A stretch of DNA of 64,000 nt from a virus, in the IMG/VR virus record IMGVR_UViG_3300033233_000010, positions 57,784 through 121,783 of that record; one strand, 5' to 3'. The position numbers were made by a program, and so were the translations under genes. Shown here piece by piece: positions 62,570 to 64,000 of this stretch. Position 1 is the first letter of the stretch, and every line of letters starts with the position of its first letter. The notes under the pieces are model-generated. The model saw only the letters and a program-made list of their open reading frames with translations, did no database searches and was not told the origin of the DNA.

Positions 62570-62854
62570 TTACCGTGGAAGTTCGGGGTAAGCGTTCGGC
62601 ACCGCCGGGTCGGGCACCACGTCGAAGACCACGAACTTGAAGCTGTTGTCCTCGTCCCACTTCGCGATCCGCTTCGCCAGCTCCGCGTTCTCGATCGAGG
62701 CGATCCGGTCGATGATGGAGGGCGCCCACGCCAGCGCCTCGTAGGTGGCGGTGATCGGCGTGCCCTTGGCCGGAGTCTTGTCCCACGTAAGCTTGAACGC
62801 CCCGGTCGCGTAGTCGATCTCGACCTCGGGGTCGCTACGACGCGGCTTTCTCAC
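62570..62854 (-). CDS. Small protein: IDYATG beta fragment plus PSIIDRI module
   Basis: GTG at 62854 with GAGG SD. Confidence 0.55.
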   Translation of the reverse strand: MRKPRRSDPEVEIDYATGAFKLTWDKTPAKGTPITATYEALAWAPSIIDRIASIENAELAKRIAKWDEDNSFKFVVFDVVPDPAVPNAYPELPR

Positions 62855-63215
62855 GTCCCTCGATCCACCGATCGTACTCGAAGCACCGCCACGCCGCCTC
62901 CCGGCTGTCGAGCGCGGCAATCCGGTCGATCATCGAGGGCTCGGGCGGAGGCGTGTCGATCGTGAAGTCGAGGTGGATCGTTTCCGCCGGCTTCTGGGGT
63001 CGGAAGCCGACGTTGATCCGCACCTCGCCCTTTGCGATGAGATCCTGGTCTGGGTCGCACTCGACGGTGACCAGCGACCACTTCTTGAGATCCTCGGCCA
63101 CGCAATTGTCGAGCGCCTTCTTGATCTCCGCGCAGAGCGCTGGCGTGAGGGGCTTGGCCTCCAAGACCGACAGGCGCTTCGACAGCGCGGCAGCTAACCG
63201 CTTGGCGTCGCTCAC
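62835..63215 (-). CDS. Tail-sheath C-terminal-like fragment plus PSMIDRI module
   Basis: VTVECD...KGEVRINVGFRPQKPAETIHLDF. Confidence 0.65.
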   Translation of the reverse strand: MSDAKRLAAALSKRLSVLEAKPLTPALCAEIKKALDNCVAEDLKKWSLVTVECDPDQDLIAKGEVRINVGFRPQKPAETIHLDFTIDTPPPEPSMIDRIAALDSREAAWRCFEYDRWIEGREKAAS

Positions 63216-63571
63216 AGGTTGAGGCCCCGCATGTCGATCTCCTCAGAGTGCTCTCCGGTCGGATCGAGGATCTTGGCGATGGCGGGGCTCGTGCGTATCC
63301 AGTTCGCCGGGCTCCTCACCGTCCTCTTGTGGATCTCGTTCGAGGCGCCCGCGATGGCCTTGAGCATCGCTTCGCGTTCGGCGGCGAGCTTGTCGTAGGC
63401 GGCGTTCCGGGCGGCGAGCTTCGACGACCCGAGACCGCCGACGCGATCGACGATCGACGGCTCGCGAAGGGCGGAGCGGAAACCCTCCAGCGAGAACGTG
63501 AGCGGCATCTGCTCCATCCGGTTCAGTCTCCGGTTCGCGTCGCGCATCTTCCTTCGAGACCGTCGGCTCAT
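63212..63571 (-). CDS. PSIVDRV module plus gp23-like fragment
   Basis: EIHKRTVRSPANWIRTSPAIAKIL. Confidence 0.6.
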   Translation of the reverse strand: MSRRSRRKMRDANRRLNRMEQMPLTFSLEGFRSALREPSIVDRVGGLGSSKLAARNAAYDKLAAEREAMLKAIAGASNEIHKRTVRSPANWIRTSPAIAKILDPTGEHSEEIDMRGLNL

Positions 63572-63768
63572 GCGTTGCCGAGAAACCGCGCCGGGACGGC
63601 AACCGCCTTGACGATCATCTGCGAGTAGAGCACGCACGCGTAGAACGGGTCGGCCCGCGCCACGCGCTCGGCAGCTGCTCCGTTGGGGTCGTCGATCATC
63701 GCGACCACGTCGATGATGCACGCATGCGTGGAGATGAAGGGAAGAATAGGTTCGAGCAGCTCACTCAT
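63568..63768 (-). CDS. Small protein with a diverged IIDxxA module
   Basis: IIDVVAMIDDPNGAAAERVARAD; 66 aa. Confidence 0.5.
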   Translation of the reverse strand: MSELLEPILPFISTHACIIDVVAMIDDPNGAAAERVARADPFYACVLYSQMIVKAVAVPARFLGNA

Positions 63769-64000
63769 TGGGTGGTGCTCCGACGCTTCGTCCGATTCGC
63801 GCAACGCTCTCGCGCGTCCGCGCACTGGTCAAGATGTACTCCGCCGTGTCCCGAGCAACCTTCATCTCGACCGAATCGAGCAGGTAGCCGAAGGCGGAGA
63901 GAAATATCTCCGGCTTCTCCCGGTCCTCGGCGAGTTGCTGTGCCAGCGCGGGGTCCTCGATTGTAGCGAGCCAGGTGATCACGTCGGGCTGGCACAGCAA
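63761..64000 (-). CDS. Partial ORF: diverged module plus baseplate-wedge-like fragment
   Basis: EYILTSARTRESVARIGRSVG; the 5' end is outside the window. Confidence 0.5.
   Translation of the reverse strand: MLCQPDVITWLATIEDPALAQQLAEDREKPEIFLSAFGYLLDSVEMKVARDTAEYILTSARTRESVARIGRSVGAPPNE

Follow-up and report, generated by a model that had tools for sequence, protein, structure and literature searches.

Genomic Setting and Organization of the Mini-Protein Genes

The window analyzed here, a 64,000-nucleotide stretch whose numbering is used below unless another record is named, is the final 64 kb of a linear IMG/VR virus record of 121,783 b that was rated 42% complete by CheckV. The GC content is 64%, nearly every gene lies on the minus strand, and the bulk of the window is taken up by replication and recombination genes, specifically a DnaN-type clamp, DnaB, a primase, a family A polymerase, CobS/CobT-like genes, RecA, RuvC, and a sigma factor. 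The final 9 kb instead contains fibre-like genes and six ORFs encoding mini-proteins, designated o1 to o5 for the tandem array at the end of the record and p6 for the separate, lower-numbered ORF. These features, in which "module" refers to the sequence shared among the mini-proteins, are as follows:

63761-64000, minus strand: o5, small ORF running to the record end, so that its true start may lie beyond; coding frame signal
63568-63768, minus strand: o4, 66 aa; degenerate module IIDVVAMIDDPNGAAAERVA at ~63655-63723; ATGAGTGA overlap with o5
63212-63571, minus strand: o3, 119 aa; basic leader, module at ~63383-63463, and a segment matching the helix-strand-helix of the capsid A-domain at ~63251-63382
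62835-63215, minus strand: o2, 126 aa; two predicted N-terminal helices, beta hairpin resembling the sheath C-terminus at ~62952-63071, and C-terminal module at ~62862-62942
62570-62854, minus strand: o1, 94 aa, GTG start; segment resembling the capsid insertion-domain hairpin ("IDYATG...TATYE") at ~62729-62824, module at 62654-62722, and a 27-aa tail
56732-62503, minus strand: co-directional block between o1 and p6, from the ORF list, without the module; ORFs of 560 aa, 202 aa (tail-fibre-like), 148 aa, and 973 aa (Gly/Ala/Ser/Thr-rich, fibre-like)
56732-59653, minus strand: the 973-aa Gly/Ala/Ser/Thr-rich, repeat-like ORF, with no PHROG match
55154-55654, minus strand: p6, 166 aa; segment matching the capsid C-terminal strands at ~55499-55648, a ~75-aa insert, and a segment matching the capsid C-terminal end at ~55160-55276
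~55328-55459, minus strand: module hairpin, inside the ~75-aa insert of p6

All six minus-strand ORFs, o5 to o1 and p6, are coding. In a GC3 frame plot, the frame switched precisely at the borders of all five tandem ORFs, and successive ORFs overlap at junctions that read, 5′ to 3′ on the minus strand, ATGAGTGA (o5/o4), ATGA (o4/o3), and GTGA (o3/o2), while the GTG start of o1 at 62854 lies ~20 nt within o2; the frame plot and the overlapping junctions together bore out the five tandem, overlap-coupled ORFs that had been proposed for 62570-64000. Additionally, public protein sets list o1, o2, o3, and o4 as called genes; some of these come from a 254,565-b assembly of this phage, in which the exact o4 protein is encoded by a called gene. 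For o5, no longer form was present in the protein database and two start variants were absent in an exact look-up; the notion that o5 is the C-terminal end of a long gene for a capsid N-terminus was rejected, as no longer protein was found. A basic N-terminal leader, MSRR(S/Q/R)(R/L)R..., is common to o3 (63520-63571, minus strand), its orthologue P0159, and a p6-like variant, P0153, and may be a second shared element.

The mini-protein genes bracket the tail-fibre-like genes on the same strand. Within the intervening block, the 202-aa ORF matched the tail fibre family phrog_8469 (E 2e-8), and the 973-aa ORF is probably a fibre. Two tRNA genes on the plus strand (55075-55151 and 54628-54699), one of which has the four-base anticodon CTAG, are convergent with p6. 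A promoter and terminator scan gave nothing informative.

No close relatives were found in IMG/VR, JGI metagenome contigs, or cultured-phage records. The sequencing runs listed as containing the sequence included no RNA run. Among sequencing-run contigs, matching DNA was obtained from one sediment run, and elsewhere two identical 151-base pieces were recovered. A Logan contig assembled independently from the probable source run stops ≤8 bases from the record end (63992-64000); because this contig ends there too, the record end may be a repeat or the true genome end, not a chance assembly stop.

A Shared Helical Module

The module is ~27 aa long, has the form PEPS-I-[IV]-D-R-I-x-x-L...Y-D, and is solid in o1, o2, o3, and p6. 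Its consensus is P-E-P-S-I-[IV]-D-R-I-[AG]-x-L-(x)2-5-[AV]-A-[KR]-R-x-x-x-[YW]-D, which in p6 and its relatives extends as a long helix. An HMM built only from the copies in o1-o3 was searched against 2292 six-frame peptides from the whole 122-kb record and recovered p6 at E 3.3e-7, with the next match at E 0.5. With orthologue modules added to the HMM, o1 scored at E 2e-14, o4 at E 0.0057, and o5 at E 17. The motif had been ascribed to all six ORFs; it is thus firm in four of them and degenerate in o4, and o5 is not among its carriers.

The position of the module relative to its partner varies, being N-terminal, internal, or C-terminal. In P0003, one stand-alone relative of p6, a second copy is cleanly inserted in a different loop of the capsid segment, so the module is mobile as a unit. 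The 30-nt cores of the paralogue modules are alike at 19-25 of 30 bases, with two to four synonymous codon changes per pair in addition to non-synonymous ones. Because the paralogue copies differ at both synonymous and non-synonymous codons, the constraint acts on the peptide sequence rather than a DNA site. A DNA-level motif was rejected on account of these synonymous differences and because every copy lies in the coding frame.

AlphaFold prediction of p6, from a 14-row alignment, gave a helix at residues 68-76, a turn, and a second helix at residues 81-109, all at pLDDT ~90, whereas the capsid-derived parts remained <50. The module is accordingly modeled as an autonomous helix-turn-long-helix hairpin; since the hairpin is predicted with confidence and the capsid parts are not, the copied pieces would depend on another structure for folding. 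For o2, the model had low confidence (pLDDT 57); its secondary structure comprises a pair of helices and a beta hairpin besides the module helices.

Capsid-Derived Partners

Partners of the module were compared with an HMM of 65 full-length capsid proteins (482 positions) as well as with Pfam. The strongest match was p6, which aligned to the capsid HMM at E 2e-30 over positions 391-437 and 435-471, with the ~75-aa insert between them, and to Pfam Gp23 (PF07068) at E 1.4e-6 (28.4 bits against a cut-off of 24.4). The two capsid stretches of p6 adjoin in normal capsid proteins and are separated in p6 by the module-bearing insert. The p6 family also retains the capsid signature residues G30, G37, P42, Y43, and P45 and the DPxDF..R.G motif. 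Similarly, o3 matched capsid HMM positions 326-369 at E 3e-13, and Pfam Gp23 positions 222-261 at E 0.003 (17.4 bits, under the cut-off). The "IDYATG" segment of o1 aligned to capsid HMM positions 202-233, the insertion-domain hairpin, at only 8.6 bits, a low score that was reached by none of 1000 shuffles. There was no Pfam match for o1, o2, o4, or o5, and a PDB sequence search with o3 returned nothing useful. On these profile alignments, p6, o3, and, more weakly, o1 are judged to carry real segments of a T4-type major capsid protein. None of the three contains a complete HK97 core (N-arm, E-loop, spine helix, A-domain, and P-domain) in one chain.

A search of the 122-kb record, which represents 42% of the genome, revealed no full-length Gp23, and the full-length parent genes for capsid and sheath were likewise absent from it. 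At 26023-26802 (minus strand), a frame that overlaps the RecA-like gene region contains a stretch weakly resembling the capsid protein (...EIDREILE...; capsid HMM positions 232-292, E 0.1), a likeness that may be due to chance. Five large IMG/VR phages with full-length capsid genes had no extra capsid fragments and are therefore not informative relatives.

A Sheath-Like Partner and ORFs Lacking a Partner

No likeness to the capsid protein was found in o2. Residues 49-88 instead aligned to positions 423-464 of the 496 in the tail sheath family phrog_23, at E 1e-3 in the protein comparison, and in a genome-wide search o2 was the only match to phrog_23 (E 1e-4). A second sheath HMM, built from the C-termini of four T4-like sheath proteins from unrelated records, gave the same alignment, at a score reached by 1 of 1000 shuffles. 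A PDB profile search aligned o2 to residues 417-449 of the 451 in Afp3 (PDB 6rao chain D), which was not significant alone, and a language-model look-up returned small viral clusters annotated as sheath C-terminal or TssC, which we treat as a lead only. The match is confined to the C-terminal positions 423-464 and does not run across the sheath domains, and o2 did not match Pfam Phage_sheath_1C (PF17482). The link between o2 and the contractile-sheath C-terminus (last ~40 residues) is consequently rated as moderate, because several lines agree on the region but the Pfam model finds nothing. This C-terminal region of the sheath contributes inter-subunit strand exchange.

For o4 and o5, no partner was detected with PHROG, GPW_gp25, or the capsid HMM. 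The score of o5 against the capsid HMM was reached by 35 of 1000 shuffles, and when o5 and o4 were aligned by eye to the spine-helix and "IVxVQPM" regions of the capsid protein, neither HMM nor shuffles supported the result. The original prediction that the partners derive from virion proteins thus stood for the capsid, through the HMM matches of p6, o3, and o1, and weakly for the sheath, through the phrog_23 match of o2. A baseplate-wedge N-terminus had also been named as a partner; this was not borne out, since neither o4 nor o5 matched GPW_gp25 or PHROG, and the gp25/GpW family (PF04965) gave no match in the whole record at E values up to 10. The wider proposal of a modular family on a common adaptor applies to four ORFs, bearing three capsid pieces and one sheath piece, while o4 has only the degenerate module and o5 falls outside.

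Orthologues and Conservation

Orthologues of o2, o3, and p6 were recovered from at least three other uncultured phage assemblies. Those of o2 (P0156 and P0157, 78-81% identity) and o3 (P0159-P0161, 58-67% identity) are on assemblies of 287,531, 139,943, and 8,985 b, all of which also contain p6-type genes. Stand-alone relatives of p6 (P0002, P0003, P0004, P0006, and P0008) are 116-176 aa long and begin at the same capsid position, and more distant relatives (P0007, P0010, P0011, and P0023) have other inserts in the same loop. No orthologue of o1 was found in the public protein sets.

In both the o2 and the o3 family, the module is the best-conserved stretch, invariant among the orthologues of a group, and each paralogue holds its own variant, which points to a specific, selected interaction. 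Because orthologues are conserved with the module best kept, the mini-genes appear to be functional and selected, not debris. The phage encodes conserved mini-proteins of 66-166 aa, in which a ~30-85-residue piece of a virion lattice protein is combined with a ~27-45-residue shared hairpin; the copied pieces are the capsid insertion-domain hairpin, the capsid A-domain helices, the capsid C-terminal strands, and the sheath C-terminal hairpin.

Capsid pieces in other arrangements were also observed. In three metagenomic proteins (P0141, P0010, and P0023), capsid pieces are joined to unrelated sequence; P0141 continues after "YAPYVP" with a ~250-aa tail without a capsid match, and P0023 has the "KVYxDP" strand twice. 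An unrelated partial huge-phage record (G001; 146,839 b, 41% complete) has two isolated capsid pieces 14 kb apart and no full-length Gp23. One of its ORFs, of 156 aa (L017:1486-1956, plus strand), opens with the conserved "IVSVQPM" (Gol-like) sequence of the capsid N-terminus and then runs into an unrelated domain, and a capsid C-terminal piece (L015:9860-10720, plus strand) has a ~190-aa insert at the same loop as p6.

A Genome-Wide Helix Tag

Across 139 candidate genes, the strict pattern [VIM][VI][DE]x[VIL][AG]x[VIL] turned up 14 times; shuffling predicts 0.4 occurrences (maximum 3 of 300), so the pattern is enriched ~35-fold. Half of the occurrences (7 of 14) lie 2-10 residues before the stop of small proteins, often followed by L-D/E, and four are in o1, o2, o4, and p6. 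Examples are at genome positions 3297, 5514, 5728, 8729, 12545, 19930, and 21784, and at window positions 62699 and 62916. Because this pattern is enriched and matches the first helix of the module, that helix is regarded as one instance of the genome-wide tag.

Discussion

Relationship to Known Systems

The mini-proteins are not capsid or sheath proteins by membership. Like gp23 and its vertex paralogue gp24 (PF07068, HK97 fold), p6, o3, and o1 align to the C-terminus, A-domain, and insertion domain, respectively, of T4-type capsid proteins; unlike these, they have 30-85 capsid residues each, out of order and interrupted or flanked by a foreign hairpin, and would be unable to form the HK97 fold alone. 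Likewise, o2 aligns through residues 49-88 to the last ~40 residues of contractile sheaths (phrog_23; Afp3), but it is a 40-residue piece with weak scores that is fused to two helices and the hairpin.

In logic only, the helix tag resembles the capsid-targeting sequence of T4 internal proteins and the cargo-loading peptides of encapsulin systems in that a short peptide is grafted on many unrelated small proteins, and one peptide on many unrelated proteins suggests one reader protein. In T4 the tag stands at the N-terminus, where the prohead protease cuts it at an (L/I)-x-E site, whereas the tag of this phage, an amphipathic helix, sits internally or at the C-terminus and is lengthened into a hairpin in the mini-proteins; the module itself was found in internal or C-terminal positions and not as an N-terminal tag. 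Encapsulin cargo-loading peptides have a different consensus.

Proposed Role and Alternatives

We tentatively propose that the fragments dock on the parent capsid and sheath lattices, with the hairpin as a shared handle, and that they have a role in virion assembly or decoration; this is possible, though short of probable. As the pieces are predicted to be unable to fold alone yet keep signature residues, they most likely act by replacing the same element on the parent lattice protein. Docking would then mean that a strand or helix of the fragment complements capsid and sheath subunits that are unassembled or at an edge, and one partner would read the hairpin as a common handle. The effect might be to cap or time polymerisation, or to plug accessory parts, e.g., the neighbouring fibre proteins, onto capsid and sheath. 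The location beside the tail-fibre genes leans slightly, as a weak indication, toward a virion role. A broader version, which is conceivable but doubtful, is a system of modular addressing, in which the helix tag would mark >12 small proteins and the hairpin-fused sub-family would be lattice plug-in adaptors recruiting one common partner.

The fragments could instead be directed at other molecules or at other phages. As immune decoys or antagonists, they would soak up or block host sensors of structural proteins (CapRel-, Lit-, Avs-, or DSR2-type), with the hairpin providing stability or multimerisation. Capsid and sheath are abundant late proteins that are sensed by defence systems, and the family is both conserved and diversified into paralogues; however, such sensors are usually activated by binding their trigger, and an epitope-bearing fragment would be expected to trigger a sensor rather than to protect. 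The genes are also located among fibre-like, presumably late genes with no defence-related neighbour, and the Gol-like capsid region is absent from the fragments, as no ORF of the set matches the part of the capsid HMM that corresponds to the Gol peptide region (T4 gp23 residues ~93-122). We consider decoys unlikely, and no result favours them over a role in assembly or decoration. As weapons against co-infecting phages, the fragments would be dominant-negative pieces that poison the capsid and sheath assembly of related rivals, and it is the case that truncated subunits often poison lattices and that the copied pieces come from the core or the contacts of proteins that polymerise. The fragments nevertheless resemble the capsid type of the phage itself, so its own assembly would be threatened too, and this, with the late-region position, makes such a use very unlikely.

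Two further explanations would dispense with docking on an intact lattice protein. The module might be a selfish, in-frame mobile mini-insert accompanied by functionless fragments left by recombination or by gene-end replacement through homing endonucleases, which would suit its N-terminal, internal, or C-terminal placement relative to the partner and the gain of a second copy in a new loop of P0003. In this respect it is similar to Rickettsia palindromic elements, being a ~27-aa module found in frame in surface loops with a second insertion in one orthologue. Those elements are neutral and have copies alike at the DNA level; the module copies, in contrast, are conserved at the protein and not the DNA level and are the best-conserved part of the orthologues, and this protein-level conservation points to function rather than neutral selfish DNA. 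Intact orthologue ORFs in several diverged phages, paralogue-specific variants, copies that differ at synonymous sites, and the lack of an endonuclease gene alongside likewise speak against a selfish insert, which we regard as distinctly unlikely. A capsid gene in pieces, perhaps together with the sheath gene, in which the mini-proteins would be parts of a multi-chain capsid held by hairpins, would account for the lack of a full-length Gp23 in 122 kb and for the fact that, on the capsid alignment, p6 begins next to where o3 stops and both are conserved as separate genes. Against this, only positions 202-233, 326-369, and 391-471 of ~480 are covered, out of order; none of the ORFs was found to supply the N-arm, E-loop, or spine helix, and the record spans only 42% of the genome. 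Split inteins also find no place at the junction, as o3 ends in ...RGLNL and p6 starts with MSALND, neither with an intein-length extension, and there are no intein junction residues. With under half of the capsid fold represented, the pieces arranged out of order, and no intein-type junctions, a split gene is highly improbable.

Significance

A full-text literature search returned no description of structural-protein-fragment mini-proteins on a shared adaptor; what is new is the array of several different lattice pieces, a sheath piece included, on one hairpin. If the fragments dock on the capsid and sheath, as tentatively proposed above, huge phages would be shown to control the assembly of the virion, or to decorate it, on a new principle, and the fragments would offer ready-made peptide handles for capsid and sheath engineering. 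Were they decoys, they would be the first case of structural-protein mimicry turned against capsid-sensing immunity. Under either reading, a testable role would be given to very common "hypothetical" mini-genes in large uncultured phages.
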